Of a stretch of DNA of 64,000 nucleotides, positions 1 through 24,056 are shown piece by piece (positions within the stretch are counted from its first letter, which is position 1; every line of letters begins with the position of its first letter). The notes under the pieces were generated by a model. The model did no database searches. It saw only the letters and a program-made list of their open reading frames with translations, and had not been told where the DNA came from. The position numbers and the translations under genes were made by a program. The stretch comes from Planctomycetaceae bacterium (GTDB lineage Bacteria; Planctomycetota; Phycisphaerae; SM23-33), in NCBI GenBank assembly GCA_039680605.1, contig JBDKTA010000005.1:5141-69140 (forward strand). Reading direction: 5' to 3'.

Positions 1-1322
1 CCGCTTCGGCGAAACATGGTTTGTGGCCGTCCTGGCGGGCATCGGCCTTTCGCACCTCTTGATGCGCCCCAGTGCACGCGAGTGGCGGGCGACAAAATGG
101 ATCGCCGCCGCTTGTGTCACGGTCGCTGGCGCCTTGGCGGCCACGGCAATGCTGCTGCCTGTCGCCGGTCCGGCGGGGACGGGCGCTGCCTACAAGATGT
201 TGAGCCATTTTCAGCAGTGGGATTGGTTTCTCTTCGGACCCGTCCTGTACTTGGCGGTCGCCTCCATCGCCTTGGTAGTTCTGACCGTGGCGATGCGATC
301 CAAGGCCTTGGGATGGCTGTTGGCCGCGGGCGTGCTGGCTGAGGCCGCCGTGTTCGGCTTTATCTTCCTGAATGAGCCGGTCTTCAGCCCCCGTGCCCGA
401 GAGGAAACGGATGCGTATGCCGCCGTCTACAAGCGGCGCTACCGCCGGCTGGCGGACCATCCGTACTATCAAGCCGTTCCCGCGCTTCGCGAGTTGACGG
501 CCGGCAAGAACGTACGGGTGGTCGGCACGTACTCCGACATCGACAATCTGGCCTGGGCGGCCGGCGGGTATGCGCTGCTTGGCTTTGACAGCAAGCCGCT
601 CATGCCCCGCATGCACCGGATCAGTTCGGTCTTCACGCAGGGCGAACCGTACGTGATGACGCTTTCGGTCCCGCCCCAGCAGTGCCTGGCGCTCTGGAGC
701 AACATGAACGCGGCGTACCTGGTGGCGTACAACTCGCAGGGCCTGCGTTCCAGCGGCGACCTGATCAAGACCGACTTCCTGTCGATCCTGAAATTGCCCG
801 AGCCCATTCCATACGTCTACACGCAGAACCGCGTCCAGGAACTGGAGGAGAGGGACCAGTTCCAAGCCATCTGCAGAAGCGATCTGCGGCGGTTCGTCGC
901 CGTTGAGCCTGGCCAGGCCGCCGTCCTTAAGGGGAAGGTGGATCTGACGCGCGTTCCCTGGGGCGGCTACATTGAGGCCTTCGACGCGCTGCAGAGCGCA
1001 AATCGTATCACGGCCTTGGACCGGTCCAACGCCAACCGCCTGAGCCTTAACATCGACGTGACGGTTCCGGCCATGCTCGTGATTAACGAGTGCCACCACA
1101 GCGGATGGTCCGCCCGCGTCAACGGCAGGACGGCGCCGCTGCTCCAGGTGAACTATCTCCAGCAGGGGCTCTGGTTGACCAGCGGGCAATCACACGTGGA
1201 GCTGGAGTTTTTCCCCGCCGCGGTCAAGCGCGGGCTGATGGTCAGCGTCGCTTCGGGATTGGTGGTCATACTTTCAGCCGGTGTGGCGATGGGGCTGCGT
1301 CGCCGGCGAAGGCGGGTCACCC

Positions 1323-1330
<8 letters not shown>
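1..1330 (+). CDS. YfhO-like GT-C family membrane glycosyltransferase, C-terminal part (5' end lies outside the window)
   Basis: The frame is open from base 2 (RFGETWFVAVLAGIGLSHLL...). It aligns colinearly with the C-terminal ~440 aa of ORF 8128-10716 (ADHPYY/ADHPYI, DNLAW..GG.ALLG.DSKPL, VNYLQQGLWL, terminal TM plus Arg tail). Confidence 0.8.
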
Positions 1331-2068
<738 letters not shown>

Positions 2069-2078
<10 letters not shown>

Positions 2079-3094
2079 TCCTCCAGCGTGCCCTCACGCA
2101 CCAGGTCGAGGGTGACGCAGTGGGGCCCGCCGCCGAGGGGGCGCATGTGGCGAAGCTGGATCGGCAGCGATTCGATCCCGTACCGGGCCAGTTCGCGCAT
2201 CAGGTTGGTCTGGCTCTTCTCGATAGCCACCAGGTCCGGCCGCAGGCTCAGCAGGTTCATCGCGATCCACTTGGAGGCCCCGCGCCACAGAGGGTCTTCG
2301 GCGATGGGGTTGGGCTGGGGACAGTAGATCTTGTCCCACTTGGCAAAGACCTTGGGCACGTTGCTCTCGTTGACGCGGTCCGGGCACAGCAGCACCAGTC
2401 CCGGCCGCAAGGGCAGCACCGTCGAATCGACGTGCACGAAGGAGTAGATGCCCTCGGCGGGGTGCACGCGGTAGTCGCTGCCGAGGTGGTCCTGCAGCCA
2501 TCTCGCGCCGGCGTGATTGCCGGTGTTCGAGATCAGCATCAGCACGTCGCGCCCCATCTTGAGGCAGTTGGCCGCGTCGAAGACCGGCTCGTCGTTGCGC
2601 AGCGTCGGGCGCCCCAGCACGCTGCGATCGTACAGGTTGTCAAGCAGCCGCGGGCGCGGGGCCTGGACGGTGGTAAACAGGTGGCGGTAGATACGGGCCT
2701 CGTCCTGGCGATGGCGCAGCGCCATCGGCGTCTCGATCGCTTGCGTGCCGATGGTCAGGATCGTGTCGCGAGGGCAATACGCATAGCAGCCGTCGACGCA
2801 CCAGTCGGCGGTCTGGTAGCGACGAGTGAAATCCGCTGCGCCAGGCCGATGCACGCGGATACCCATCTGCGTCAGGACGCGGGCGAACTCGTCGAGGTCT
2901 TCGTTGCTTTCGTCGATGATGTGCCGCGGGTATGGGCCTGTCAGTGCCTGGGCGAACTGCTCGCCCGTGGCGTCGCCGTAGCAGACGCTGTGAAGCGACT
3001 CGTCCTTGATGGTGGGCACCTGCGCCCCGGTGGCCGTGCCGACCACCACTTCCCGCAGTGGGTGCCATTCAGTGTATGTGTTGATCGAAATCAT
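2069..3094 (-). CDS. Amidinotransferase (StrB1 inosamine-phosphate / glycine amidinotransferase family)
   Basis: 341 aa. The N-terminus MISINTYTEWHPLREVVVG and the C-terminal GGGPHCVTLDL (active-site Cys motif) are typical of this fold family, and the size is StrB1-like. It is the last gene of the minus-strand rSAM/GT2 operon. Confidence 0.75.
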
Positions 3095-3122
3095 CCGGTT
3101 CTCTCGTCAGGATCCGCCATGC

Positions 3123-4133
3123 TCATCGTCCAATTCGCAACACGTTCATGATTGCCCCCGGCGACAGCGACAGCACATAGTTCAGTTCCACCAGCGGCGC
3201 GCACCAGCACCGGTTGCAGTGGACCTTCTGGCGCCGGACGGCCGCCAGCCGCTCCGCCAGCGGCGCCTCGCGCTGCTGTGTGCCGCCCTGGCAGGCGTCC
3301 TCGAACAGAGCGCAGGCCACGATGCCTCCGTCGGGCTGGATCGAGCAGATCACCCTGCCGGCGAAACAGGCAATTGCCGACGCCTCCGGCCACCGCGCCA
3401 GGTACCGCAGCCCCTTGACCGAGTTCGTGATGGCCGCCCCATGGCCCTTGAGCTCGATAAGGTGTTCCATGACACGGCGGTACTGCTGCACCTGCAGGGC
3501 GACGGGGTTGGGTTGGCGACCGAGGTTGATCCAGGTGGTGGCGGGCTGGAACATGATGCTGACACCGGCGCGGCCGGCGATTCCTAGCAGTTCGTCGACC
3601 GAATTGATATTGTGCTGATTCAACGTACAGACCGCGCTGGCGGCGATGCCGGCCCCGCGGCAGGCGTCGAAGGCATTCAGCGCTTTGGCGAAGGTGCCCC
3701 TGCCGCGCACGGCGTCGTGAACGCCCTCCGGGCCGTCCAGACTGATCGAGACCATGTCCAGCCCGCGCAGTTCGTCCAGGCGACTGGGCACCAGGATGCC
3801 GTTGGTACTCAGCCGGACGTAGAGCCCCTTGCCTTTGGCTCGACCGATCAGCCGGCCGAGGTCTTGGCGCAGCAGCGGTTCGCCGCCGCTGAAGGTCACC
3901 CATCGCATGCCCAAGGCCGTCAGATCGTCCAGCAGCGTCAGCGCAGCGGTCGTGTCTAGTTCCTCGCCGGCCAGGCTGGCCGACGCGCAGTACGCGCAGC
4001 GGCAGTTGCAGCGGAACGTCACGTTCCAACTGGCGATCAGCGGGACGCACACGCCGCGCAGGTTCGCCTTGGCGATCGACGCCAGAACCGTCCATCCGTC
4101 CGACACAGTCTGCAATCGCCGCAGCGGTTTCAT
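3123..4133 (-). CDS. Radical SAM enzyme, type A (SPASM/twitch-like Cys-rich C-terminus)
   Basis: CNCRCAYC (Cx3Cx2C), SGGEPLL, STNG and SLDGP motifs; C-terminal CFAGRVICSIQPDGGIVAC...CNRCWC. Start taken at ATG 4133 (MKPLRRL), which overlaps the upstream stop as TGATG. The 99-aa extension in the ORF track is G/P/R-rich and overlaps the upstream gene. About half the positions are identical to 7155-8153 by eye. Confidence 0.85.
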   Translation of the reverse strand: MKPLRRLQTVSDGWTVLASIAKANLRGVCVPLIASWNVTFRCNCRCAYCASASLAGEELDTTAALTLLDDLTALGMRWVTFSGGEPLLRQDLGRLIGRAKGKGLYVRLSTNGILVPSRLDELRGLDMVSISLDGPEGVHDAVRGRGTFAKALNAFDACRGAGIAASAVCTLNQHNINSVDELLGIAGRAGVSIMFQPATTWINLGRQPNPVALQVQQYRRVMEHLIELKGHGAAITNSVKGLRYLARWPEASAIACFAGRVICSIQPDGGIVACALFEDACQGGTQQREAPLAERLAAVRRQKVHCNRCWCAPLVELNYVLSLSPGAIMNVLRIGR

Positions 4134-5155
4134 CAGGAGGATTCCTCCTGTCGGGCGAGCGAATCTGCCGCTGTGGCTTGTGGGTCGTTGCGGCTGGCCA
4201 GGTACAGGCGGCAGCCGCCCAGGAACGACGCGATGCCGCCGATGCCGTAGGCGATGGGGAAGCCCCACATGGCCACCGCAGCCCCCAGCGAATCCAGCCA
4301 CGGCGCCTTGGCGAGCTTGCGATCGATCAGAAAGACGATCAACTGCAGGCCCTGCAGCATCGCCAGCAGGCCCACCAGCCCCAAGCCCGCCAGCACCGCC
4401 TGGGCGATCACGAACAGCGACGGGATCCATACCAGCACCGCCCCCGCGCGGTTGAACGTGCCGCGTTGCTTCAGGGACAGCCCTTCGTTAAACCACTGCA
4501 TCCAGAAATGCACCAGGTCGCGGCGGTGATGATAGACCACGACGGCCGGATCGCGCAGGATCGTCATCCCCGCGGCCACGATGGCATTGCTCAGGGCGAC
4601 GTCTTCGCTGGTTCGCAGCGACTCGTCGAACCCGCCCAACCGCTCCAGGACGTCGCGCCGGACGACCAGATTGCACGTCGAAGCGTTCTGCACCAGCTCG
4701 GCGGTGCGGTGCGGATCGTAATTGCCGCTGACCTGCGGACCCATGATCAGCGGGCTGGCCATCGCCCAGCCGCAGATCCGCCGCAGCCACGGTTCTTGCG
4801 GCGGCGTCAGTGCCGGTCCGGTCACTGCCGCCAGCGACGCGTCGGACTGTTCCAGGCGCTGGCGGGCCTGGACGAGCCAGTCTTCCTGAGGGAAGGCGTC
4901 GGAGTCGACATAGGCGATGAAGCGGCACTGCTGCGGGGCGGCGGCTGCCCCGACGTTGCGCTTGTGGGATATCCCGCCGGCATCAACGACCTGCGTCCCG
5001 TACTGCTCGTAGGCGGGCACGAACTCGTCGCCGACGAGGATCAGCGGCCAGGGCCCGCCGCGCAGATTGGCGATCGCCTCGAGACACTGGTCGACGTAGG
5101 CGCTGCGCCTCTGGAAGATGACGACCACGGCGATGTGTCCCGCGCAGGCGGCCAT
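4133..5155 (-). CDS. GT2 glycosyltransferase with C-terminal multi-TM domain (type m)
   Basis: GT2 core (IAVVVIF..., YVDSDAF DxD, SEDVAL) followed by about 4 hydrophobic helices. ATG 5155 overlaps the upstream stop (TGATG). Paralogue of 19121-19975. Confidence 0.8.
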   Translation of the reverse strand: MAACAGHIAVVVIFQRRSAYVDQCLEAIANLRGGPWPLILVGDEFVPAYEQYGTQVVDAGGISHKRNVGAAAAPQQCRFIAYVDSDAFPQEDWLVQARQRLEQSDASLAAVTGPALTPPQEPWLRRICGWAMASPLIMGPQVSGNYDPHRTAELVQNASTCNLVVRRDVLERLGGFDESLRTSEDVALSNAIVAAGMTILRDPAVVVYHHRRDLVHFWMQWFNEGLSLKQRGTFNRAGAVLVWIPSLFVIAQAVLAGLGLVGLLAMLQGLQLIVFLIDRKLAKAPWLDSLGAAVAMWGFPIAYGIGGIASFLGGCRLYLASRNDPQATAADSLARQEESS

Positions 5156-6306
5156 CAGCGCTTCCCCCCGCCCAGGACTCCGCGCAACCACAGCGTGATA
5201 TTCCCCGGCATGGTGAAGGCGCTGTGCTGCATGAAGCAGGAATGATCGCAGGAGCAACCGCGGCTGGCGATTGTCCTGCATTGGGCGAGAGCACGTGCGG
5301 AGTTCAGCACATCGTCCAGCGCCGCCGGCGGGTCCGTCAGCGAGCCGATGGGCTCGAGCATCTCGCAGGCGTGGACCTGGCCCAGCGCGTTAATATACAG
5401 CGAACCCCGTCCGGCCGAGCACGCCCACTGACGCGGCAGACCGCGATGGTGGCGAAGGGCCTGGCGATAGTACCAGCCCCAGAACATGCTGTTCAGGCGG
5501 CCGACGATGCCCAGGCGGTATCCCTTGCGGCGCCGGCCCGATCGCGCCAGGTGGGCGCCTTCGCGGCTTAAGAAGTCCACCGCGTCTACGGCGGTCTCGC
5601 CGGCGGGCACCGAGCGAGCCAGGCTCAAGCTGTGCCCTTCGGCGAGGGGCCAATGCTGCTCGACCCACTCCTGCACGTCGCGATAAGACGCGGCGTTGTA
5701 TGAGCTGATGCACGTATTGGCGCTGATGTGCAGGCGCGGATGCTGCCCCTTGAGTGCGGCCAGGGCGTCGTAGGTGCGGCACAGGGCCTCGAAATTGCCC
5801 TCGACGCCGCGGATCTCGTCATGGCGCTGGGCGATGGCATCGATGGACAAGCCCACGGCCAGCTCGCCGCGGAACGTCTGAAGAATCTCCCGCGTCCGGG
5901 TAACGATCGTGTTGGTCGCCAGGCCATTGGTGGGCACGCTGACGATGCGCACGCTCGTACGGGCAGCGAAGGCATCGATCATCTCAACCAACTGCGGATG
6001 CAGGAACGGTTCGCCGCCGCTGAGTTCCAGCACCAGCAGGTTCGGCAAGGCCTCGGCAATGCGCTCGATGGCTTCCAGCGACAGGACGGCCCCGCGGGTG
6101 TTGAGCTTGTCGCGATTGTAGCAGGTCCGGCAGCGGGAGTTGCACTGCAGGGTCGGCTCGAGAATCAGCAGGGTGCGAACAGGTCGGCCTGCCAAGGTAT
6201 GTATCCAAGACTTGAACACTGTGGCTGCCAGATTTGTGCGCACGGGATGGGCCTTGCTGTCGGGGGGCACTTCGTCCGAACCGGGAAGCATGATGTCCTT
6301 GCGCAT
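5155..6306 (-). CDS. Radical SAM enzyme, type B (SPASM-like C-terminus)
   Basis: CNSRCRTC (Cx3Cx2C), SGGEPFL and PTNG motifs; C-terminal CSAGR...ACE...CSCDHSC. Paralogue of 18033-19064. Confidence 0.85.
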   Translation of the reverse strand: MRKDIMLPGSDEVPPDSKAHPVRTNLAATVFKSWIHTLAGRPVRTLLILEPTLQCNSRCRTCYNRDKLNTRGAVLSLEAIERIAEALPNLLVLELSGGEPFLHPQLVEMIDAFAARTSVRIVSVPTNGLATNTIVTRTREILQTFRGELAVGLSIDAIAQRHDEIRGVEGNFEALCRTYDALAALKGQHPRLHISANTCISSYNAASYRDVQEWVEQHWPLAEGHSLSLARSVPAGETAVDAVDFLSREGAHLARSGRRRKGYRLGIVGRLNSMFWGWYYRQALRHHRGLPRQWACSAGRGSLYINALGQVHACEMLEPIGSLTDPPAALDDVLNSARALAQCRTIASRGCSCDHSCFMQHSAFTMPGNITLWLRGVLGGGKR

Positions 6307-6332
6307 GTGACTATCTTACCAGTTTCCGGCGT

Positions 6333-6365
6333 ATTGCCTTGGCTGAATTGCCGAGCAAAATTGCC
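6333..6365. promoter_or_regulatory. Three direct ATTGCC repeats in a divergent promoter region
   Basis: ATTGCC occurs at 6333, 6347 and 6360 (13-14-nt spacing), in the 106-bp AT-rich gap between the divergent rSAM/GT2 operons. Confidence 0.35.
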
Positions 6366-6412
6366 ATTGTGAGCGCATAGCTAATGTCGATAATAGTACG
6401 TTAAAGGCGATC

Positions 6413-7153
6413 GTGACTGTTATGTCAGAGCGTGCCGATCCCTGTGTGTCAGTAGTACTGCCCACGTATAAAGAGGCAGAGAATTTGACCACCCTTGTTG
6501 ACCGCATTGCCGCGACCCTGGTGGCCTGCAACGTGACGTATGAAATTATTGTCGTTGATGACGATAGTGACGACGGCACCGAAGCGATCATGCAGAGACT
6601 TGCCCAGAGGGGTGCTCCTATCTCTTTGATCCTGCGAAGAGGAGTACGCGACCTGAGCACGGCCGTGGTGAGCGGTTTCTCGCAGGCGACTGGGCAGGTG
6701 CTGGTATGCATGGATGCAGATCTCAGCCACCCTCCAGAGGCCTTGCGTGACATTGTGCGGGCTATGACGACTTCGCACGCCGATTGCTGTATCGCCAGCC
6801 GGTATACCAAGGGAGGCAGCGCCGGAGAAGGCTGGGCCTGGCACCGATACCTGAATAGCTGGGCCGGAATCGCCGCCGCCCGGATATGGACATCCGTGTC
6901 CGATCCGATGTCAGGGTATTTTGCTGTGACACGAAGCGCCTTGGACAGTGCGAGACCGCTTAATCCCATTGGATTCAAAATCCTTCTTGAGTTGCTGGTA
7001 AAATGCCCTCTAAAGAACATCCACGAAGTTCCGATCCTTTTTGCCCCCAGGGCGAGCGGACGGAGCAAGTTAAATCTGCGCCAGAAGTGGAACTTCCTAC
7101 GGCACCTGTTTCGGCTGGTCTGCTTTACGCTTGGCAGTAGTCCCAGAGGCTGA
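6413..7153 (+). CDS. Polyprenol-phosphate hexosyltransferase-like GT2 (Dpm1/GtrB/CsbB type)
   Basis: VSVVLPTYKEAENL, VVDDDSDDGT, CMDADLSHPP and the short soluble length are typical of this GT2 subgroup. The start is GTG 6413 or ATG 6422. The gene is visibly AT-richer than the genes to its left. Confidence 0.8.
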   Translation: MTVMSERADPCVSVVLPTYKEAENLTTLVDRIAATLVACNVTYEIIVVDDDSDDGTEAIMQRLAQRGAPISLILRRGVRDLSTAVVSGFSQATGQVLVCMDADLSHPPEALRDIVRAMTTSHADCCIASRYTKGGSAGEGWAWHRYLNSWAGIAAARIWTSVSDPMSGYFAVTRSALDSARPLNPIGFKILLELLVKCPLKNIHEVPILFAPRASGRSKLNLRQKWNFLRHLFRLVCFTLGSSPRG

Positions 7154-7154
7154 G

Positions 7155-8153
7155 ATGTCTGGACACATTATCTCTGACGGCGTTGCGGTTTTCGCGGGTA
7201 TCGTGCGCGCCGCGATCTTCCGAAAGCGCTTTCCTTTGGCGGTGGTGTGGAACATCACCTATCGCTGCAACTGCTCGTGCCGTTACTGCGGGACCAGCGA
7301 AATGCCGGCGGAGGAATTGGTAACGCCCCAGGCCTTGAGCCTCATGGATGATCTTGCGGAGATGGGTACGCGGTGGTTGACCTTTAGCGGCGGAGATCCG
7401 TTCATGCGGGTGGATCTGGGGCAACTCGTCCGGCGCGCAAGGCACCACAAGATGCACCTGAGGATCAGCACCAATGGGATTCTGCTGCCCGATCGCATCT
7501 CGGAAGTTCAGTCGGCCGACGCTGTTTCCGTCAGCCTGGACGGTCCCGCCGAAGTTCATGATGCTGTCCGCGGCAACGGTACGTTTCGCGGCGCCCTTGC
7601 GGGCATCGAGGCCTGCAAGACCGCTAATATTAAAGTCAACCTGAAATGCACGTTGGGCAGCCACAATCTGACGGTCGTCGATCAGGTGCTGGAGATGGCC
7701 CGGCAACTCCATCTGCCCGTTATGTTTCAACCGGCAACCTCGTGGCTCAATTTTACTTCCGCTGAGGATCCCATGGCTGCCGAACGGGAAGCCTACCGCC
7801 GCGCTGTTGAGTATCTACTGGACCGTAAGCGCGAGGGAGCGCCCATCCTGAACTCTGCTGCGGGCCTGCGCTACCTGGCAAACTGGCCCGAGCCTGCCGA
7901 TATCCCCTGTTTTGCGGGCAAGCTTTTCTGCTCAATCGGGCCGGACGGATCGTTCGTCGCCTGCTCGACCTTCCAGGACGCCGGCCTGAAAGCAAGCACG
8001 GATCGCAGCGGGTCGACGCGAGAGCGTTTTGAGCGGGCGTCTGCGGCTGCTTACAACTGCCGGCAATGCTGGTGTGCGCCGCTGGTGGAGTTCAACCTTG
8101 CCCTGAGCATGCACGCCGGCGCCGTCCTTAATGCCCTGAAGGTTGGCCTGTGA
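7155..8153 (+). CDS. Radical SAM enzyme, type A' (paralogue of 3123-4133)
   Basis: CNCSCRYC, SGGDPFM, STNG and SLDGP motifs; CFAGKLFCSIGPDGSFVAC...CRQCWC. ATG 7155 lies 1 nt after the upstream stop (TGAGATG). Confidence 0.85.
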   Translation: MSGHIISDGVAVFAGIVRAAIFRKRFPLAVVWNITYRCNCSCRYCGTSEMPAEELVTPQALSLMDDLAEMGTRWLTFSGGDPFMRVDLGQLVRRARHHKMHLRISTNGILLPDRISEVQSADAVSVSLDGPAEVHDAVRGNGTFRGALAGIEACKTANIKVNLKCTLGSHNLTVVDQVLEMARQLHLPVMFQPATSWLNFTSAEDPMAAEREAYRRAVEYLLDRKREGAPILNSAAGLRYLANWPEPADIPCFAGKLFCSIGPDGSFVACSTFQDAGLKASTDRSGSTRERFERASAAAYNCRQCWCAPLVEFNLALSMHAGAVLNALKVGL

Positions 8154-10716
8154 GGCATTTCGGTTGCTGCCTTCGGCGAAGCCGTCTCCAGTACGCCGCC
8201 GCGACCACCAACAGCACGCCCCCGCCTCCCGCCGCAGATACCATCAGCCCGTATTGCACGGACTTGGGGAAGAATCGCAGTTCGACTTGATGCCGGCCCG
8301 AGGCAAGCCACAAGCCCTGCTGAAGATAGTTGACCTGCCTGACAATGCAAGGCTTGCCGTCAACCGTTGCCGTCCATCCGGGATGGTAGTACTCGTTGAT
8401 GACCAGCATCGCCGGCGTATTGACGTTGATGTCTATTTTGAGCCGGTTGGGTTTGGTCCTGTCAATATTATGGACGGGATTGGCAATTTGCAGCGTCTCA
8501 AACGCCTCAGTATAACCTGACCACGGAACTGAGGCCAAATCGACACTGCCCTCCAGCGATGATTTGACGCCAGGTCCGACGGAGACGAACCTGCGCAGGT
8601 CTGCGCGATGCAGCACAATCAGTTGTTCGTCGGTCCCCATCTCCTGCACACGATTCTGGGTATACGCGTAAGGCATAGGGGCAGGCAGCTTGTAGATCGA
8701 AAAGAAGTCGGTCTGGCCGATCCGACCGGCCGACTGCGATGTCTGGTAATTAAAGATGACCATATATCCCACGTTCATGTTGTGGAGGAATGGCATCATC
8801 CGTCGCGGTTCGACCTGAAAACTGAGGAAATACGGCAGCCCTGACACCCAAGGTGAGATTGCCTTGCACATCTCCGGCGCCAGCGGCTTGCTGTCATACC
8901 CCAGCAGGGCGCGCCCTCCGGTGAGCCATGCCAGATTATCCACATCCGACCGGCTGGCGACGTAGCGAACGTCGTCCCCCTTCATTGCCTGCTTGAGGGG
9001 AGCTACCAGGGCGATATAGGGGTGGTCAGCGGCCCTGTAATACCGTTTCTTGGATACTCTTGCCATTGGATCCGTGGCGTCGGCGTCGCGGGGGCCGTCT
9101 CCGGATTCATAGAAGTACGAAAAGCCAAACCACACGGTCTCCAGCAGGATTCCAGCCAATACAACCCGTCCCAACCATCGCCCGCGCCCCAGAAAGACGC
9201 TCAGCGCCGCTGCCATCAGCGCCAGGGCGATATACAGCACAGGCGAGAGCAAAAACCACTTCCATTCCTTGAGGACCGTCAGGGTCTGCCACGCGCTGAC
9301 GGTCTGGCCGCGGAATGTTACCGGCACAAGCAGTGCCGCCGATGCGGTCAGCAGCGTCAGGACGGAGACGGTCAGCAGCACGATGCGGCCGCCATGGCCG
9401 CTCTCCTGGCGCTTCAGCAGCTGCGATACGCCCACTGCAGCCAGAATCGCCACGAACCAGTTCTCGCCGGTTCGATAGTAGATCGGGCGAGGCAACTTGA
9501 TCCACGGCATCACATAGCTCAGCGGTTTGAACAGGGGGGTGTTCTCGCCCAGGATGATGACCATCAGCACCAGCAGTGCAATCATCGACACCCGTGCCCA
9601 AAGGCGCTCGTGGCAATCCTGCATAGACTCCTGCCCCCGTCGCCCGACGATTCGCCCCAAGCCGATGGCGGCTGCAAATGCCGTGAAGATTCCCCCGGCC
9701 ATGTAGTACCAGCTGTTCATCGGTTCCGTAAGACCGATTCCCCATCCGTGCGTGCTGTCAAGAAAGCCAAGGAAGTTTGGCACAAAGAGCATCACCAGCC
9801 CTGACAGAGGCAGGAAGCCCGTCACCTGTTCCATCACGCTTCTGACGCCGAATACCTCCTCGAACCAGGATGTCCCCTCGATCGTTCCGCCCCACATGAT
9901 TCCCGTCAGAGCGATCCCGACGATCATCATCGCGCCGACTCCCAGCAGTGACACCACCTTGGGGACGAAGGGCCGGCGAAAGCTGAGGCCCGTCAGGAGA
10001 AGGGCGGTCAAGAACATGTAAAAATACGTGCGGCTGAGATAGCTGATCTGGCCGGTACTGGACATCAGCCCTACCAGCAGCGTGCCGAGGAGCCACCACG
10101 TGGCGCGGCGGGTAAAGAAGAACCGACTCATCGCCAGCATCACCCAGGGCAGATAGGCGCAGACGAAAACTTGGGTTATCGTAACCGTCGCGGTTCCGAC
10201 CTCAGCCCCCAGTCCATACAGAAGGGCCGTCACGACACAGGCGGTGGGGCGCAGGTTCAACTCCCAGCGTGCGAAGAAATACGCTCCGGCGACCGCCGCC
10301 GCCACATGCAGGCAGAAAGGAATGATGAACAGGATGTAATAGGACTGCGCGAGGTTGTCCGGATTGGCCAGCAGCAGAAGCGGCAGCAGAGGCAGGTAGT
10401 AGATGGGCGGATCGTCATTGACGTAGTAAGGCAGCGCTCCGGCGAACGTCTGCCGATCCCACAGCGGCACTTGCCCCTGTTGCACCAGCCGGGCGAGGGC
10501 GATCAGCCGCGGCGTGGCTTCGTTGAGATTGTCCACATGGTACATCGGCACCCAGCCCAGAAGAGCCGGAGCCAGAAACAACGCGATCACGACGATGAGC
10601 GCCCTCGGCGACCATCGATCCCACGCCGCAGGCACGCCGGCGGCGCCCATTGCCGCACCGCCGGGCACGGCGCCGCCTGTGCCGATGCCGCATTCTGGTA
10701 GTGCTGGATTTGCCAT
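8128..10716 (-). CDS. YfhO-like GT-C family membrane glycosyltransferase (full length)
   Basis: 862 aa. About 500 aa of polytopic membrane region are followed by an extracytoplasmic C-domain and a terminal TM. The C-half is colinear with ORF 1-1330. The 3' end overlaps the convergent rSAM-A' gene by 26 nt. Confidence 0.8.
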   Translation of the reverse strand: MANPALPECGIGTGGAVPGGAAMGAAGVPAAWDRWSPRALIVVIALFLAPALLGWVPMYHVDNLNEATPRLIALARLVQQGQVPLWDRQTFAGALPYYVNDDPPIYYLPLLPLLLLANPDNLAQSYYILFIIPFCLHVAAAVAGAYFFARWELNLRPTACVVTALLYGLGAEVGTATVTITQVFVCAYLPWVMLAMSRFFFTRRATWWLLGTLLVGLMSSTGQISYLSRTYFYMFLTALLLTGLSFRRPFVPKVVSLLGVGAMMIVGIALTGIMWGGTIEGTSWFEEVFGVRSVMEQVTGFLPLSGLVMLFVPNFLGFLDSTHGWGIGLTEPMNSWYYMAGGIFTAFAAAIGLGRIVGRRGQESMQDCHERLWARVSMIALLVLMVIILGENTPLFKPLSYVMPWIKLPRPIYYRTGENWFVAILAAVGVSQLLKRQESGHGGRIVLLTVSVLTLLTASAALLVPVTFRGQTVSAWQTLTVLKEWKWFLLSPVLYIALALMAAALSVFLGRGRWLGRVVLAGILLETVWFGFSYFYESGDGPRDADATDPMARVSKKRYYRAADHPYIALVAPLKQAMKGDDVRYVASRSDVDNLAWLTGGRALLGYDSKPLAPEMCKAISPWVSGLPYFLSFQVEPRRMMPFLHNMNVGYMVIFNYQTSQSAGRIGQTDFFSIYKLPAPMPYAYTQNRVQEMGTDEQLIVLHRADLRRFVSVGPGVKSSLEGSVDLASVPWSGYTEAFETLQIANPVHNIDRTKPNRLKIDINVNTPAMLVINEYYHPGWTATVDGKPCIVRQVNYLQQGLWLASGRHQVELRFFPKSVQYGLMVSAAGGGGVLLVVAAAYWRRLRRRQQPKCLTGQPSGH

Positions 10717-10877: not shown

Positions 10878-13181
10878 ATGCCTTTTGGACGCAGGTCTGT
10901 TATTGTCGTCATTGTCGCTCTCTCTTCAGGAATCCTCCTGCTGTTATGGTGTCTCATCGGCCAGAAAGGCTCGCAGCCGCCGCCGGAATTGATCTGGGGC
11001 GACGGCTTGGGGATTTCTTTGCCCCAGCATGAGATGGGCCAGGCCCAAGCTGCCCTTGAAATGGTCGCCAAATTTGCAGGCGGGAGCGCGATAACCATCG
11101 ATTACCCCATGGAGGGGACTATCTTCCCGGCCGAGATCGTGGCGCCACAATTTCAATGGCACGATGCTGATGCGACAGCGAAGCGATGGCTGGTTGAGTT
11201 CTCTTTCGCGCCCGGCAGTCCCTCGATTTTTGCACTGGTCAACGGGCCGCCGCCTCAGGTTGCGGCAATCGATCCGCGCTGCACCGCCCTGAGCAATCAG
11301 CCCCCTTGCCTGAAGCCGGATGAAGCGACCGCGCATTGCTGGCAGCCTCAGGAAGCGGTCTGGGAGGCCATAAAGAAGAGAGCTGGCGACGGTGCCGTAC
11401 AAGTGACTATCCGCGGGTTCAGCAGCAGCGGGGAGAAGATCCTCTCACAAGGAAGCATCAACATCAAGATCTCCTCTGATCCCATCGGCGGGGTCATCTT
11501 CTACCGTGACGTGCCCCTGATGCCCACCGAGGGCCAAGACGGCAAGATCGAGCCCCTTGCCGAGGCTCTGATCGGCTTGATTGACTGGCGGCTTAAAGAC
11601 ATCTCCCGGCCCGACAGCAAGGTGGTGCTCAGGGACATGCCCACTTGCGCCAACTGTCACAGCTTTTCGGCCGGAGGCAAGACGCTGGGGATGGACGTTG
11701 ACGGGCCCACCGGTGACAAAGGGGCCTACGCGGTCGCCGACATCCGAAAGGAGATGACGATCTCGCCGCGGGAGATCATGACCTGGAACAGTTGGCAGGA
11801 CAAGGCCCGTACCGGCAAGACGATTGGCTTTCTCTCGCAGATCTCTCCTGACGGGCAGTTCGTGCTTTCGACGGTGAACGAGTCGCTCTACGTCGTGAAC
11901 TTTGCGCAATACGATTTCCTTCAGGTCTTCTACCCGACGCGGGGGATCATCGCCTGTTACGACAGGACGACCGGCACGATCAAACCCCTGCCGGGAGCGA
12001 ACGATCCGGCGATGGTGCAGTGCAGCCCGGTCTGGAGCCCGGATGGCAAATGGGTGGTCTTCTCCCGTGCCGCCGCCCGGGATCCGTTCCCGCCCGGGCA
12101 GAAGATGCCTCAGCGCGCCAACGACCCCGACGAACTGCCCATGCGATACGACCTGTACAAGGTTCCGTTCAACCAGGGCGCCGGCGGACAGGCCCAACCG
12201 ATCGCCGGAGCCTGCGATAACGGCATGAGCAATACCTTTCCCAAGATTTCCCCCGACGGGAAATGGATCGTCTTCGTCAAGTGCCGCAACGGGCAGTTGA
12301 TGAGGCCCGACAGCGAGTTGTGGATCGTGCCGCTCGTCGGCGGCCAGGCCCGCCGCATGCGATGCAACATGTCGTTGATGAACTCCTGGCACAGCTTCTC
12401 GCCCAACGGGCGATGGATGGTCTTCTCCTCCAAGTCCAGGAGTCCCTACACGCAGATGTTCCTGACCCATATCGACAAAAACGGCATGGACAGCCCGCCG
12501 GTTCGCGTCACCGGCGCCACCGCGGCCAATCGCGCCGTTAATATCCCCGAGTTCGTGCAGGTCAAGTACGCCGACTTGGATTCTATTACGATTCCTTCTT
12601 TGGAATACTGGCGGCAGTACAAGCGGGGCCTGGACCTTGCCCAGCGCGATCGCCACGCCGACGCGGTGGAGTGCTTCCGCCGAGCCCTGGCTGTCGATCC
12701 GGGCTCGGCCCGAATCCAGGCGTCCCTGGCGGATTCCCTGACGGCCATCAGCCAACTGGGCGAGGCGGTCGAATACTACGATCGCGCCGTGGCTGGCGAG
12801 CCTCAGAACTTCGTCTATCTCAGCAACCGGGGCAATGCCCTGCTCTACCTGGGGCAGCTCGACCGGGCCCTGGCGGACTTCGACACATCCATCAGCATTC
12901 GCCCCGGATACGCCGTCGCCCATGCCAATCGGGGGTCGGTGCTGGCCCGCCGGCAGGAATATGGCCAAGCCATGGCCGCGTTTTCCGAATCGTTGAGACT
13001 CAAGCCCGATCAGTACTGGGTCTGGTGCAACCGCGGGATCCTGAAGGAAATGGTCGACGACGACAAAGGCGCCGCCGAGGATCTGATCAAGTGCCTGGAT
13101 CTGGCTCCGCCGGAATGGCCACAGCGGGCCGACGTCCAGAGGCGACTCCAGGAGCTTCGAGTGCGAGTCGGTTCGAAGTAA
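10878..13181 (+). CDS. Membrane-anchored TolB/PD40-like beta-propeller protein with C-terminal TPR repeats and one CXXCH motif
   Basis: N-terminal TM; CANCH motif; repeated SPDG[KQ]W/F.VF blades; about 200 aa of TPR at the C-terminus. AGGAGG RBS at 10863-10868. Confidence 0.7.
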   Translation: MPFGRRSVIVVIVALSSGILLLLWCLIGQKGSQPPPELIWGDGLGISLPQHEMGQAQAALEMVAKFAGGSAITIDYPMEGTIFPAEIVAPQFQWHDADATAKRWLVEFSFAPGSPSIFALVNGPPPQVAAIDPRCTALSNQPPCLKPDEATAHCWQPQEAVWEAIKKRAGDGAVQVTIRGFSSSGEKILSQGSINIKISSDPIGGVIFYRDVPLMPTEGQDGKIEPLAEALIGLIDWRLKDISRPDSKVVLRDMPTCANCHSFSAGGKTLGMDVDGPTGDKGAYAVADIRKEMTISPREIMTWNSWQDKARTGKTIGFLSQISPDGQFVLSTVNESLYVVNFAQYDFLQVFYPTRGIIACYDRTTGTIKPLPGANDPAMVQCSPVWSPDGKWVVFSRAAARDPFPPGQKMPQRANDPDELPMRYDLYKVPFNQGAGGQAQPIAGACDNGMSNTFPKISPDGKWIVFVKCRNGQLMRPDSELWIVPLVGGQARRMRCNMSLMNSWHSFSPNGRWMVFSSKSRSPYTQMFLTHIDKNGMDSPPVRVTGATAANRAVNIPEFVQVKYADLDSITIPSLEYWRQYKRGLDLAQRDRHADAVECFRRALAVDPGSARIQASLADSLTAISQLGEAVEYYDRAVAGEPQNFVYLSNRGNALLYLGQLDRALADFDTSISIRPGYAVAHANRGSVLARRQEYGQAMAAFSESLRLKPDQYWVWCNRGILKEMVDDDKGAAEDLIKCLDLAPPEWPQRADVQRRLQELRVRVGSK

Positions 13182-13210
13182 AAAGCGGGCGGCTCCAAGA
13201 GGAGTCGCCC
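13180..13210 (-). terminator. Intrinsic terminator downstream of LamG/PEP-CTERM gene 1
   Basis: Stem GGGCGGCTCC/GGAGTCGCCC (9 of 10 bp) with loop AAGA, followed on the minus strand by a T5 run. It overlaps the stop codon of the convergent gene. Confidence 0.55.
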
Positions 13211-13243
13211 GACGTCGCAGAGACGCGTTGCATCTGGGGTGGA

Positions 13244-14086
13244 TCAGCGCCTGCGCTTGCGGCAGTACAAGGCTACGCCCCCGGCCCCCAACAGGCAGAG
13301 AGTCGCGGGCTCGGGGATGAGTATCAGGCCAAGGCCACCGGCGACTTTGTGGGCCTGGATCTCGCTGTCGGTCAGAGCCGTATTCCAAAACGCCAAGTCA
13401 TCGATCCAGACATCCGTGGTATTTGCCGCATACCGTTCGGTAGATCCTGAACCAATCTGCCAGATTGTCGTGACGCCGAAGGTCGAAGTGTTGTACGTCG
13501 AGTTGCTGGCGACCCCATCCCAATAGTACGTGTAGGTATCGTCGGGCCGGAACACCAATGCCAGATGATGCCATGTGGCGGTTGGATTCCAGTTGAGGCT
13601 CCCCAAGCCGGTGCCTCCAGTGACAGTGAGGCTCTGACTGTTGCCGGAGGTAGTACTGATGCTGTAGTTCCCCGCGGTCATGAACCTCGAGTACGTGTGC
13701 CCGCCGTACGTGTTGGAGTCTCCGGTGTGAACCCACATCTCAATGGTGAAATTGGTGCCAAGGTTCAGGTCGGCGTTGCCTGTCGGAAGCGTGAAGGCCT
13801 GGCTTTCATAGGCCTGGTACTGGCCCTTGATCGCCAGGGCATAGTCGCCGGTCTCGGCAGGATCATACTTGCTGCCGATGCCGGTACGATAAAACGTCCC
13901 AATTGGTCTCGGGTCGTCCATCGTGCCATCGGTCTGGTTGGCACCTACATTCTGGGTGTACTTGTACGCCTCGTCGGCCATGGTCTGGCTGTTGAACGAG
14001 TAGTAGTTGACCAAGGCGGCCGAAGCCATTGGGCAGAAAAACGCCGCCACCGATACCATGGCGATTGCAGTAAGGCTTTTCCTCAT
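13244..14086 (-). CDS. Secreted LamG/concanavalin-like domain protein with PEP-CTERM sorting signal
   Basis: Signal peptide (AFFCPMASA). LVNYYSFN... with W..LA.V / DD.A.WN motifs typical of LamG-type 'laminin G 3' domains. C-terminal IPEPATLCLLGAGGVALYCRKRRR. AAGGAA RBS. Confidence 0.8.
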   Translation of the reverse strand: MRKSLTAIAMVSVAAFFCPMASAALVNYYSFNSQTMADEAYKYTQNVGANQTDGTMDDPRPIGTFYRTGIGSKYDPAETGDYALAIKGQYQAYESQAFTLPTGNADLNLGTNFTIEMWVHTGDSNTYGGHTYSRFMTAGNYSISTTSGNSQSLTVTGGTGLGSLNWNPTATWHHLALVFRPDDTYTYYWDGVASNSTYNTSTFGVTTIWQIGSGSTERYAANTTDVWIDDLAFWNTALTDSEIQAHKVAGGLGLILIPEPATLCLLGAGGVALYCRKRRR

Positions 14087-19064: not shown

Positions 19065-19120
19065 CCACGGACACCGCGATTATCATCCCTTGTTACAACT
19101 CCGCCAAGACGCTCGGTGCA

Positions 19121-19975
19121 TTGCTGGAGAGCATCGCCAAGCTGGCGCCGCCGCCACGGGAGGTAATCGTGGTGGACGATTGCTCCACGGACGATTCTGC
19201 GGCCATTGCAGCGGGCTTTGCCGATGTCACGTGCCTGCGTACGGCCGACAACGGCGGACCGTCAGTTTCTCGGAATGTCGGCGCTCGGCATGCTCGCAGC
19301 GAGTTGCTGCTGTTCATCGACAGCGACTGCGAGATATTAACCGCCGACTGCATCGCCAAGCACATCCAGGCCCATGCAGGCCACCCCCGAAGCCTCGTAG
19401 TCGGGGCGGTCTCAAGCATCGCCCCTGATACCTATGTGGGCAGGGCCAACGGCTATCTCCAGTGCTTCGAGAACATCCCCTTCCGAGGCAGCGGCAAAAT
19501 TAAGCGAGCCCACGAAATGCCGGGCATGCATTTTAGTGTCCGCAGAAGCGATTTCGAAGAGATTGGCGGATTCGACGAAGAACTCCGAGCCGGAGAGGAC
19601 GCGCTGTTCCATGTCTGTGCGCAGGCCAGGGGGATCAAGGCCCTGCGGATCGGCGAGGCTGTGGTGGGGCATCATGACGATCATTCCGCCGCAACTATCT
19701 TCTGCAAATATTTCAACTACGGCAAGACGCGCCTGACGATGAAGGCCAAGGGGGCCTATGGGTGGCGAAGTTTCCTGTTGCCTGACAGCGTGATATTGCT
19801 ATCGATCCTGGCGCCGCTGGTGACCCTCGGGTTGACAGCCAAAGTAGTCTACTCATGGCTCCCTTGGCGACCGGCTGTACTGCTGCACGCGCCGTTGCTG
19901 CTGGTGTACAACCTGGGTTTTGCCGGCGGCGCGGTCGCGTGTGCGTGGCAGCAACGCCGGAGCCGGCGGCAATAG
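19121..19975 (+). CDS. GT2 glycosyltransferase with C-terminal TM domain (type m'); true N-terminus probably upstream of 19121
   Basis: VVDDCSTDDS, FIDSDCE (DxD) and GEDALF motifs, followed by TM helices. The in-frame upstream sequence (19073-19120) encodes the conserved GT2 first strand TAIIIPCYNSAKTLGA but contains no ATG/GTG/TTG (see findings). Confidence 0.75.
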   Translation: MLESIAKLAPPPREVIVVDDCSTDDSAAIAAGFADVTCLRTADNGGPSVSRNVGARHARSELLLFIDSDCEILTADCIAKHIQAHAGHPRSLVVGAVSSIAPDTYVGRANGYLQCFENIPFRGSGKIKRAHEMPGMHFSVRRSDFEEIGGFDEELRAGEDALFHVCAQARGIKALRIGEAVVGHHDDHSAATIFCKYFNYGKTRLTMKAKGAYGWRSFLLPDSVILLSILAPLVTLGLTAKVVYSWLPWRPAVLLHAPLLLVYNLGFAGGAVACAWQQRRSRRQ

Positions 19976-19980
19976 AGCCG

Positions 19981-22170: not shown

Positions 22171-23229
22171 ATGAATGCCCCCAGGAAACAGCGGCTGGTG
22201 AAGATCTTCCTGCTGACGGGCAAGCTCGCACTGGCTGTGGTGCTGGTGGCGCTGCTCACACAGCAGGTTCATTGGAATGACGGCGTCGATCCCCAGACGC
22301 AGAAGCTCGTCCTGGGTCTCAAGACCGTCCTGGCTCAAGCCGATTGGGTTACGCTGGCGTTGGCGGTGCTGGTGATGTTCCCCTCATCCCTGGTCTGCGC
22401 ATTTCGCTGGCGAATGCTCCTGGCGGTCCAAGGCGTGCCGTTGGGACCGCTGCAGGCAGTCAAGCTATACCTTCTTGGCGACCTGTTCGCCAATGTGCTG
22501 CCGGGCACTATCGGTGGCGATGCAGTCAAGGCGTACCTGGTGACGCGCGCCACTGAGCGCAAAGGCCAGGCTATTCTCAGCGTGCTGGCCGATCGTGCCA
22601 TCGGACTCTGCGCCGTGACGCTGCTGGCGGCGGTCGCCTTGGCATGGGCGTGGGGCAGCGGACAGATCGGCTGGGTCGCCGCACAGGCGCCAGGCATCTC
22701 GCTGGCCGTCATCTCCGCAGCGATGGCCGCCGCCGCGGCGATGCTCTTGAGCACTCGCCTGCGACGCCTGACGGGTTTGCAGGCGCTGTACTCGCGGCCG
22801 CGCTTTGCTTCCCTGGCGGCAACGGCAGGGCAAGCGGTGCGCACCTATCGCAGCCGCCCCGCTGCCGTGATCGCGGCGATGCTGTACACGCTGGTGTCGC
22901 AGGCGATGCTGATCGGTTCGATTGTTTTGATCGGCATGAGCCTTGATCTGGGCGCGGCCTGGCACCGCTACGCGGTGGGTATTCCGCTTGTCGAAATCGC
23001 AACGGCCGTGCCCGTCACCCCCGGGGCCGTCGGCGTATGGGAGTGGGCCGGACAAGTGTTTTTCGCCGGCGCCGACCCCAACAGGATCTTCATGATGGTG
23101 CTCCTGTGGCGTGCCGTGACGACGGCCTGCGCCCTGCCCGGTCTGGCGGTGGCGCTGCTGGGCCCGCGGATTCCGCGTGCAGCGCAGATGCAGGCCGACC
23201 TGGAGACGATGCCATGCAGTGGAAGTTGA
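22171..23229 (+). CDS. LPG_synthase_TM / UPF0104 'flippase-like' polytopic membrane protein
   Basis: About 8 TM segments. LLGDLFANVLPGTIGGDAVKAYL is characteristic of this family. The gene starts 5 nt after the rSAM-D stop. Confidence 0.7.
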   Translation: MNAPRKQRLVKIFLLTGKLALAVVLVALLTQQVHWNDGVDPQTQKLVLGLKTVLAQADWVTLALAVLVMFPSSLVCAFRWRMLLAVQGVPLGPLQAVKLYLLGDLFANVLPGTIGGDAVKAYLVTRATERKGQAILSVLADRAIGLCAVTLLAAVALAWAWGSGQIGWVAAQAPGISLAVISAAMAAAAAMLLSTRLRRLTGLQALYSRPRFASLAATAGQAVRTYRSRPAAVIAAMLYTLVSQAMLIGSIVLIGMSLDLGAAWHRYAVGIPLVEIATAVPVTPGAVGVWEWAGQVFFAGADPNRIFMMVLLWRAVTTACALPGLAVALLGPRIPRAAQMQADLETMPCSGS

Positions 23230-23258: not shown

Positions 23259-24056
23259 TCAAGAAGACGTCTGCTGCGAAGCGATTTCCGATGCGGCGGT
23301 GAACTGAACGCGCCGGGACGCCCGGGGCCACAATTCCGGCGCGTACACTTGCGATGCCGTTCGCACAAAAAAGAAAAACACGCCCAGTATGTTGCGCATG
23401 CCAAAGGCGCTGGTGCTGCAAAGGTCGGGATATATGTTCGTGATCGGCACTTCAATGCAGTTCAGGCCCGACTTGAGGGCCTTGATCAATGTCTCGGCGC
23501 TGAAGGCATAACTGTCGGTCTGGATGTTCAGCCGCCGCACCACGGCTGTGGGATACAACGCCGAATCATTGAAGTAGTGCAGGTTAAACCCGAACAGGAT
23601 GTTCAGGATTGTGGTGTAGGTGCGTGAAATCACGTGCCGAATCCAGGGGCGGTCTTTGTCATTGGTGTGATAGGGCAGGATGATGTCCGCCTGCCCGCGC
23701 AGTTCCAGGATCCGCCGCAATTGATCGCCGGCGAGGTCGTGCTTTCCGTTGACGAGGATCACATAATCCATTCGCGCCGCCTCGACGCCGGCGCGATAGT
23801 TCCATCCCAGCCCCTTGTTGAGCGGATTGTGAAACACCCGGATATTCGCAAACTCCGCCGCCAGGCCATCGGCCTCCTGATCTGTCCCGTCGGTGCTGGC
23901 ATCGTCAAAAATCAGAATCTCATAGTTCGTAAATAGACCATCAATCGCCGCCAGCACCTCCTGTACCGTCAGGCGCAGGTTCCCTTTCTCGTTGAAGGCC
24001 GGAACTATGACAGAAAGACCGGGCGCGTCCAAGATTCTACCTCCGACCGCTTGCAC
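23259..24056 (-). CDS. GT2 family glycosyltransferase (type a', paralogue of 1323-2078)
   Basis: LSVIVPAFNEKGNL and IFDDASTDGT motifs; colinear with 1323-2078. GTG start at 24056. Confidence 0.8.
   Translation of the reverse strand: MQAVGGRILDAPGLSVIVPAFNEKGNLRLTVQEVLAAIDGLFTNYEILIFDDASTDGTDQEADGLAAEFANIRVFHNPLNKGLGWNYRAGVEAARMDYVILVNGKHDLAGDQLRRILELRGQADIILPYHTNDKDRPWIRHVISRTYTTILNILFGFNLHYFNDSALYPTAVVRRLNIQTDSYAFSAETLIKALKSGLNCIEVPITNIYPDLCSTSAFGMRNILGVFFFFVRTASQVYAPELWPRASRRVQFTAASEIASQQTSS

Follow-up and report, generated by a model that had tools for sequence, protein, structure and literature searches.

In a 64,000-nt stretch of DNA from the metagenome-assembled genome (MAG) of a Planctomycetaceae bacterium (contig JBDKTA010000005.1; the whole stretch is referred to below as the window), we identified a minus-strand operon ending in a gene for a StrB1-like L-arginine amidinotransferase. 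The enzyme belongs to a new clade of a known family, and the genes of this clade consistently lie inside envelope-glycan clusters. Based on the properties of the enzyme and its gene neighbourhoods, we propose, at about even probability, that it uses arginine to guanidinylate an amino sugar, which would then be built into an envelope glycoconjugate. Amidinotransferases have been described in creatine synthesis, in the production of aminoglycoside antibiotics and cyanotoxins, and for a small number of virulence factors, and we know of none in the synthesis of cell-envelope glycans. Guanidinylation in an envelope-glycan pathway was not found described in the literature searched.

A phmmer comparison of the amidinotransferase with all PDB sequences gave a full-length match to StrB1 (1bwd; residues 4-340, E=4.2e-93), as well as matches to SxtG (E=1e-58), AGAT (E=6e-51), and HsvA (E=4e-50). 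StrB1 is the scyllo-inosamine-4-phosphate amidinotransferase of Streptomyces griseus (EC 2.1.4.2) and acts in the streptidine pathway; it is of the same fold family as the window protein, similarly short (348 vs 341 aa), and collinear with it apart from two short indels. AGAT, CyrA, SxtG, HsvA, and AmtA share the superfamily, the catalytic residues, and arginine as donor, but are 35-45 residues longer with extra loops, and their substrates are small amines or polyketide intermediates. In a MAFFT alignment, D110, D173, H221, D223, R240, S274, and C326 of the window protein correspond to D170, D254, H303, D305, R322, S355, and C407 of AGAT and to D108, D179, H227, D229, R246, S280, and C332 of StrB1, and all seven residues are invariant in 30 homologues. 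From the AGAT and StrB1 structures we take C326, H221, and D173 to be the catalytic triad and D110, D223, R240, and S274 to be the residues holding the arginine; both sets are kept and are common to the window protein and StrB1. The initial annotation of this DNA had called a StrB1-like amidinotransferase from an N-terminal motif, MISINTYTEWHPLREVVVG (EWHPLREVVVG), and a C-terminal one, LGGGPHCVTLDLVREGTLEDYS (GGGPHC). Both motifs are present, and the residue alignment, which shows an intact Cys/His/Asp triad, together with the full-length StrB1 match confirms the call. The Pfam model PF02274 (now named ADI) reached 17.1 bits against a cut-off of 22.8, covering the C-terminal 56 residues only; since it also misses most members of the clade, we read this score as a problem of model coverage and not as counter to homology. 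The protein has neither a signal peptide nor a hydrophobic segment and is therefore predicted to act in the cytoplasm. Judged by homology, the 341-aa protein is a genuine short StrB1-like amidinotransferase for which L-arginine-dependent amidino transfer is a well-supported step, and its chemistry is probably of the ping-pong type via S-amidino-cysteine, as in StrB1.

In total, 5,682 homologues of the amidinotransferase were found in 5.8 billion proteins searched. Among the matches listed, those at ~60-74% identity all came from metagenomes or MAGs, and a metagenome scan added at least five orthologues. In a neighbour-joining (NJ) tree of 158 sequences from the fetched loci, the protein fell within a monophyletic group of 18, with identities of at least 57% inside the group and at most 55% to anything outside it. 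Its identity was 46.5% to StrB1, 36% to SxtG, and 34.5% to AGAT, and 46% to the S. griseus sequence at locus L045. The members of the clade all derive from uncultured bacteria, from MAGs labelled Pirellulaceae, Planctomycetaceae, Phycisphaerae, Kiritimatiellia, and Victivallales, as well as Verrucomicrobia, Binatia, Terriglobales, and 'Proteobacteria'. StrB1 is the closest characterised relative, but the window protein does not group with it and falls in its own clade of 18. By sequence comparison it is not a StrB1 orthologue but a member of a distinct, uncharacterised clade.

The gene neighbourhoods of the clade were examined through gene tables of nine orthologue contexts and a phmmer survey in which seed proteins were compared with the open reading frames (ORFs) of all fetched loci; counts per 18 orthologue loci are lower bounds, as several loci are shorter than 7 kb. 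A DegT aminotransferase was present in 10 of the 18 loci. Eight loci each contained a short family 2 glycosyltransferase (GT2) orthologous to the gene convergent with the amidinotransferase in the window (GT2left, Table 1), a split transketolase with N and C parts, and a DUF6016 protein that is a WbuC-family cupin by NCBIfam. A family 9 glycosyltransferase (GT9) was found in seven loci, an LPG_synthase_TM membrane protein in six, and a zinc-dependent alcohol dehydrogenase (Zn-ADH) in three. Radical S-adenosylmethionine (rSAM) enzymes were represented by two families in six loci each, several rSAM families spanning four to six loci, and by an HpnJ/AprD4-like B12-rSAM in five; GT-C glycosyltransferases recur in the clusters as well. 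The best scores of the DegT proteins of this cassette are with the sugar-nucleotide C4 aminotransferases PseC, LegC, and ArnB, and the WbuC-family cupin is of the O-antigen type. Several of these genes are often translationally coupled to the amidinotransferase gene (AT), in the orders rSAM-AT-rSAM (L005), GT2-AT-DegT-WbuC (L009), AT-DegT-WbuC-rSAM (L090), AT-DegT (L007), and PMT_2/TPR GT-C followed by AT (L003). As controls, 67 StrB1-type genome loci contained no GT2left orthologue, WbuC, or GT9, two transketolases, and 16 DegT genes, which we take to be of the StsC type of streptomycin clusters, and 75 sister-clade metagenome loci contained essentially none of the cassette set. The clade gene is thus consistently located inside envelope-glycan clusters, unlike the StrB1-type and viral loci. 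Orthologues in settings of creatine or arginine metabolism, which the initial annotation had named as a possible objection, were not seen among the contexts; they stand in glycan-biosynthesis clusters instead. The clade would accordingly be expected, on this sequence evidence, to work in envelope glycoconjugate synthesis and not in antibiotic or creatine-type metabolism.

The same neighbourhoods bear on the acceptor. Streptidine and inositol genes (inositol-phosphate synthase, StrI, StsC, the kinase, and the phosphatase) were found neither in the window nor in the orthologue loci read. In this the clade differs from StrB1, as it does in its setting in envelope-glycan clusters of uncultured phyla, and its acceptor is probably an amino sugar and not an inosamine phosphate. 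Because no inositol-phosphate synthase or other sugar-phosphate cyclase occurs in any locus, and because the DegT proteins resemble sugar-nucleotide aminotransferases, an amino sugar is more likely than a cyclitol. A guanidinylated sugar or cyclitol attached via GT2 enzymes had been suggested for the window; the enzyme and the glycan setting are as suggested, whereas the cyclitol acceptor finds no direct support, with no cyclase in any locus. When the loci with 5 kb or more of flanking sequence were counted, rSAM genes were present in 11 and a Zn-ADH in three, while no locus had both and one had neither (hypergeometric p ~0.009, phylogeny ignored; loci L001-L021 and L090-L097). This mutual exclusivity fits a single oxidation step that can be performed by either kind of enzyme, and echoes the alternation of BtrN and NeoA in 2-deoxystreptamine synthesis.

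The BtrN/NeoA parallel is also what one would expect of an aminocyclitol route, in which an inosamine-type or other carbocyclic amine would be amidinated as by StrB1, the carbocycle being formed by rSAM chemistry on a sugar (ring contraction as by HpnJ, or oxidation as by BtrN and NeoA), to give a secreted aminoglycoside-like compound or an envelope cyclitol. Such a route would agree with StrB1 being the closest characterised relative, with the B12-rSAMs of five loci, which score best against HpnJ (142 bits) and AprD4, and with a GFO_IDH_MocA oxidoreductase in L007 whose best match is inositol 2-dehydrogenase IolG (93.8 bits, cut-off 355). We nevertheless consider it unlikely: the scores against HpnJ, IolG, and BtrN-type models fall far short of the cut-offs, no locus encodes inositol-1-phosphate synthase, 2-deoxy-scyllo-inosose synthase, or another sugar-phosphate cyclase, and none of the loci read contained a kinase/phosphatase pair for aminoglycosides, a resistance gene, or an exporter. 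The DegT proteins are of the sugar-nucleotide kind, and they are surrounded by GT-C, GT9, TPR, and flippase-like proteins.

For the guanidinylation of an amino sugar we propose the following sequence of steps. A hydroxyl group of a cytoplasmic sugar intermediate would be oxidised, by an rSAM enzyme here and in most related loci and by Zn-ADH elsewhere, and the resulting ketone would be aminated by a DegT aminotransferase, whose local gene lies a little way past the left end of the window. The amidino group of arginine would then be transferred through a covalent intermediate on Cys326, assisted by His221 and Asp173, to the sugar amine, yielding a guanidino sugar and ornithine. The Dpm1/PpgS-like GT2left would place this sugar onto polyprenyl phosphate, the flippase-like protein (22171..23229) would carry it across the membrane, and a YfhO-type GT-C would attach it to a periplasmic acceptor, lipopolysaccharide (LPS) or protein, leaving a fixed positive charge on the envelope. 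Apart from the amidino transfer, the steps are proposed from gene context and from analogy with ArnB/ArnC/ArnT and PpgS/Rv3779, as are their order, the nature of the acceptor and of the lipid carrier, and the target that is modified in the end.

ArnB, ArnC, and ArnT serve to place 4-amino-4-deoxy-L-arabinose (Ara4N) on lipid A, while PpgS and Rv3779 place galactosamine (GalN) on mycobacterial arabinogalactan. Like them, the window cluster combines a DegT-type aminotransferase, a short GT2 with a putative role in loading polyprenyl phosphate, a flippase-like protein, and a GT-C, and its proposed product would add positive charge to the envelope. Unlike them, it contains an amidinotransferase, which neither Arn nor Ppg is known to have, and up to six rSAM enzymes. 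The GT-C in the window is of the YfhO type and not ArnT, and the similarities to ArnC, PpgS, and PgfS are all below the family cut-offs.

The features of the window that enter into this proposal are listed in Table 1. GT2left overlaps the amidinotransferase gene by 10 nt at the 3' ends. Its NCBIfam matches (ArnC, PgfS, AglJ, and dolichyl-P hexose transferase) are all below cut-off, and ArnC was also its match in PDB (9hwj, E=3e-4). Since the GT2s of the orthologue cassettes are 41-58% identical to GT2left but 33-42% identical to its window paralogue at 23259..24056, GT2left is the orthologue of the cassette GT2. Its orthologues often adjoin the amidinotransferase gene. The initial annotation had grouped the amidinotransferase with GT2m in the operon, but the conserved GT2 partner is the convergent GT2left instead. 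The start of GT2left is in turn overlapped by the stop of a YfhO-type GT-C gene that is cut by the window edge; residues encoded at 23..1330 match Pfam YfhO with 29.3 bits (cut-off 28.5), and the protein is a 46% paralogue of the second YfhO-type GT-C. A DegT aminotransferase and a GT9 are encoded beyond the left window edge. Together with the GT-C, GT2, and flippase-like genes of the window, these two confirm the envelope-glycosylation neighbourhood that the initial annotation had described.

Table 1. Coordinates of the amidinotransferase operon and of the associated glycan genes in the window.
Feature	Position	Strand	Support
YfhO-type GT-C, C-terminal part, cut by window edge (794 aa in L001)	1..1330	+	Pfam YfhO
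GT2left, short soluble GT2, 251 aa, Dpm1/PpgS/ArnC kind	1323..2078	+	Pfam Glycos_transf_2 E=1e-13
StrB1-like L-arginine amidinotransferase, 341 aa	2069..3094	-	PDB phmmer, residue alignment
28-nt intergenic gap, rSAM-A/amidinotransferase	3095..3122	-	Direct sequence reading
rSAM-A, 336 aa, C-terminal Cys-rich SPASM/twitch-like region	3123..4133	-	Pfam Radical_SAM E=1e-20
GT2m, family 2 glycosyltransferase, 340 aa, C-terminal membrane segments	4133..5155	-	Pfam Glycos_transf_2 25.5 bits (cut-off 23.3), E=1.4e-5
rSAM-B, radical-SAM/SPASM-like, 383 aa at most	5155..6306	-	Pfam Radical_SAM E=3e-13
Divergent intergenic region, rSAM-B operon/GT2-rSAM-A2 pair	6307..6412	.	106-bp gap
Second Dpm1/PgfS/ArnC-like GT2, 246 aa	6413..7153	+	Pfam Glycos_transf_2 E=5e-30
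rSAM-A2, paralogue of rSAM-A (47% identity)	7131..8153	+	BLASTP E=2e-119; Pfam Radical_SAM E=9e-22
YfhO-type GT-C, 862 aa	8128..10716	-	Pfam YfhO 37.5 bits (cut-off 28.5)
rSAM/SPASM, 26% paralogue of rSAM-B	18033-19064	+	Pfam/NCBIfam SPASM
GT2, 25% paralogue of GT2m	19121-19975	+	
rSAM	19981-21264	-	
rSAM, 59% orthologue of the rSAM directly 3' of AT in Kiritimatiellia/Victivallales	21273-22166	+	tblastn rSAM_5down E=5e-110
Flippase-like LPG_synthase_TM protein	22171-23229	+	LPG_synthase_TM 104 bits; TIGR00374 70 bits (cut-off 43.2)
GT2left paralogue	23259-24056	-	

On the other side of the operon, the second short GT2 (NCBIfam ArnC 4e-19, PgfS 3e-15) is coupled to rSAM-A2, and the YfhO-type GT-C that follows shows weak matches to PgfM1 and PgfM2. 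The GT2s at 1323..2078, 6413..7153, and 23259..24056 all match the ArnC, PgfS, PpgS, AglJ, and dolichyl-P hexose transferase models far below cut-off. The pairing of a GT2 with a YfhO-type GT-C, which occurs twice in the window, resembles the CsbB/GtrB-YfhO and PgfS/PgfM1/PgfM2 systems of Gram-positive bacteria. Unlike these systems, the window belongs to an organism with an outer-membrane envelope, its GT2s lack C-terminal membrane helices, and rSAM enzymes and an amidinotransferase are added. Farther to the right, 18033-24056 forms a second part of this glycan cluster, in which the rSAM/SPASM gene and the GT2 gene at 18033-19975 repeat the order of rSAM-B and GT2m. Within 24 kb there are two YfhO-type GT-C genes, five GT2 genes, and one flippase-like gene, the last standing 19 kb from the amidinotransferase gene and predicted from sequence to have a flipping role, and the local functional unit spans at least 28 kb.

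Two side observations concern this region. The GC content at third codon positions (GC3) of the module at 6413-10716 is 62-75%, compared with 82-87% for the operon and its left neighbours and 87.5% for a housekeeping-type URO-D gene, and this duplicated GT2/rSAM-A2/YfhO module may have been acquired later. The stretch at 10878-14086, which separates the two glycan blocks, encodes a 767-aa PD40/Tricorn-like protein with TPR and a protein of 280 aa with a PEP-CTERM-like sorting signal at its end (IPEPATLCLLGAGGVALYCRKRRR), both possible glycosylation targets.

The flippase-like gene also bears on another reading. LPG_synthase_TM is the family of HpnL, and the orthologue loci combine GT2, LPG_synthase_TM, and an HpnJ-like B12-rSAM, as might be expected if the product were a guanidinylated lipid head group, for example on a hopanoid-like glycolipid such as guanidine-substituted bacteriohopanetetrol (BHT) cyclitol ether, for which we know of no amidino-transfer gene. 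This ether occurs in Methylobacterium (PMC5358736). However, neither the window nor the loci contain a squalene-hopene cyclase or hpn genes, and the HpnH, HpnI, and HpnJ scores are far below cut-off. The homologue in a member of the Methylobacteriaceae (Microvirga sp. KLBC 81, L038; 45% identity) adjoins prpD and IS66 transposases and not hopanoid genes. Kiritimatiellia and Victivallales are not known to be hopanoid producers. We regard a lipid head group as the least probable product of those weighed here.

The operon itself is organised as the initial annotation had described, with four minus-strand genes in the order rSAM-B, GT2m, rSAM-A, amidinotransferase, two TGATG overlaps, and a 28-nt gap. 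At the rSAM-B/GT2m junction (cgcTGATGgcc) the stop TGA occupies 5157-5155 and the ATG 5155-5153, and at the GT2m/rSAM-A junction (ctcTGATGaaa) they occupy 4135-4133 and 4133-4131, the final base of the stop being in both cases the first base of the following ATG. The rSAM-A stop TGA (3125-3123) is followed by the gap and by the amidinotransferase ATG at 3094. GC3 is 82-87% in each of the four frames, all four ORFs have a domain or homology match (Pfam for the three upstream genes, StrB1 for the amidinotransferase), and the same gene order is found in two independent assemblies, the NCBI MAG GCA_021372275.1 (contig JAJFUU010000077.1) and the Logan assembly of SRR15035646. All four ORFs are real genes, the start of rSAM-B being ambiguous (ATG 6306, ATG 6291, or TTG 6195, the NCBI call). 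Promoter or terminator signals above shuffled controls were not found inside the operon. In operons of high GC content, overlaps of stop and start by one base are frequent, and the coupling is real, yet unremarkable in itself. The divergent intergenic region contains a single weak sigma-70-like match, on the plus strand at 6367-6394, and is probably a promoter region. In addition, a 9-codon minus-strand mini-ORF (MADPDERTG and stop; 3120..3091, ATG 3120, TGA 3091) spans the 28-nt gap, and its TGA overlaps the amidinotransferase ATG as ATGA, which may be chance or a coupling relay.

The three upstream genes are not part of the conserved neighbourhood. In a search of 173 fetched loci, no other amidinotransferase orthologue had a homologue of rSAM-B, GT2m, or rSAM-A beside it, and strong matches were confined to the window's own genome. 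The four-gene operon, which the initial annotation had treated as a functional unit, was therefore rejected as a conserved unit, the trio being found in this genome only. Both rSAM proteins have the CX3CX2C motif together with C-terminal auxiliary-cluster cysteines, which they share with the twitch dehydrogenases BtrN and SpeY of aminoglycoside pathways. rSAM-A (C42/C46/C49) is of a family that is rare (63 of 5.8 billion proteins at E<=1e-20), and the closest folds to its AlphaFold2 model (pLDDT 91.7) were SkfB, BlsE, and PqqE by Foldseek. In rSAM-B, C55/C59/C62, C296, C314, and C353 are invariant and C351 nearly so in 42 homologues; only eight homologues reach an identity of 44% or more, and the closest folds to its model (pLDDT 90.4) were SkfB, anSME, and BlsE. 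GT2m has a hydrophobic stretch at residues 236-279, MftF as best NCBIfam match (94.5 bits, cut-off 280), a weak sub-threshold likeness to EpsD, and no sequence match in PDB. BtrN-like roles had been suggested for the two rSAM enzymes, but BtrN gave no sequence match to either; it was absent from the Foldseek top 50 of rSAM-A and ranked 30 for rSAM-B (TMq 0.41), behind SkfB, anSME, BlsE, SuiB, DesII, and MoaA. A weak sequence match of SpeY to rSAM-B was found (E=1.7e-5). A specific likeness to BtrN or DesII was rejected, the searches having returned generic SPASM/twitch neighbours only. We regard rSAM-B, GT2m, and rSAM-A as putative lineage-specific tailoring or assembly enzymes.

In the three contexts of rSAM-A homologues that were read, no amidinotransferase was present. 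The homologues (L174, 8651-16843; L176, 6708-16738; L175, 3368-13347) adjoin either GT9, a carbamoyltransferase, GDSL-type proteins, and a PMT_2 GT-C, or four B12-rSAMs with LPG_synthase_TM. In L174 and L176, where a carbamoyltransferase is present and an amidinotransferase absent, the carbamoyltransferase might take that role, and the contexts as a whole suggest a family of variable glycan-tailoring clusters.

The matches of the upstream proteins raise the question of peptide or cofactor maturation, in which the SPASM rSAMs and an MftF-like GT2 would act on a ribosomal peptide or protein, and the amidinotransferase would act on Lys or Orn or make homoarginine, guanidinoacetate, or an amidino-polyamine. 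The best NCBIfam matches are MftC for rSAM-A (113 bits) and MftF for GT2m, the closest folds include the maturases SkfB, PqqE, SuiB, CteB, and anSME, and small amines are the substrates of the family members HsvA and AmtA (PMC4887976). However, the cut-offs for MftC and MftF, 265 and 280 bits, are far above these scores, the ORF lists contained no precursor peptide and no RRE/MftB, MftD, or MftE, and in other genomes the amidinotransferase is not accompanied by the rSAM trio. Its short architecture, like that of StrB1, and the context of sugar enzymes specific to the clade likewise argue for a different role, and we consider maturation of this kind very unlikely. A mycofactocin-like system in particular was rejected, with MftC and MftF far below cut-off and the other mft genes absent.

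Several points weigh against the guanidinylation of an envelope amino sugar as well. A guanidino sugar in a bacterial envelope glycan was not found reported in the literature searched, and all members of the clade are uncultured, so that their chemistry is a prediction from genes. The association with glycan genes is correlative and uncorrected for phylogeny, the polyprenyl-phosphate role of the short GT2s is assigned from similarity below threshold, and rSAM enzymes of the SPASM type usually act on peptides. In a seed search, the transketolase pair and the WbuC cupin were absent from all 64 kb of the window; the local DegT shares only 33% identity with that of the cassette, and between the local GT9 and the one in the cassette no relationship was detected. 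This genome may thus make a different, variant product. Taken in full, the proposal that uncultured bacteria make a guanidino sugar or a sugar-derived guanidino carbocycle on an envelope glycoconjugate, by means of the amidinotransferase, DegT, and rSAM enzymes and with delivery via polyprenyl phosphate and GT-C, is put forward tentatively and at somewhat less than even probability.

The sister groups of the clade in the NJ tree (42-49% identity) are largely viral, the nearest sisters being viral and aquatic sequences. In total, 158 IMG/VR contigs, many longer than 100 kb, carried a StrB1-like amidinotransferase (among them loci L177-L256; see also L099, L131, and phage PQ898602.1), and several contigs occur both among the metagenome loci and in IMG/VR. 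At L099 the neighbours are three 2-oxoglutarate (2OG)-Fe(II) oxygenases, a methyltransferase, an RmlC-like sugar epimerase, and a Hint-domain protein. A homologue of 38% identity lies near DegT and rSAM genes in cyanophage S-SCSM2R, and Campylobacter phages have distant homologues (23-27%) adjoining rSAM genes. In a cyanophage, DegT, rSAM, and 'inosamine amidinotransferase' genes located close together have been termed antibiotic genes (PMC12801897). The viral sister clades suggest that the same chemistry is used by phages.

From the consistent occurrence of this clade in envelope-glycan clusters, in phyla that have been little studied, we predict the guanidino group as a new substituent of glycans. 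If the prediction is true, the group would parallel the Ara4N and GalN modifications but with a permanent positive charge, and would form a new class among the glycan substituents of bacteria. The guanidino group is charged at any physiological pH and could influence how cells resist cationic peptides, adsorb phages, and adhere to surfaces. The amidinotransferase offers both an assayable enzyme, with arginine as donor and amino sugars as candidate acceptors, and a gene that can serve to mark a large glycan cluster rich in rSAM enzymes.

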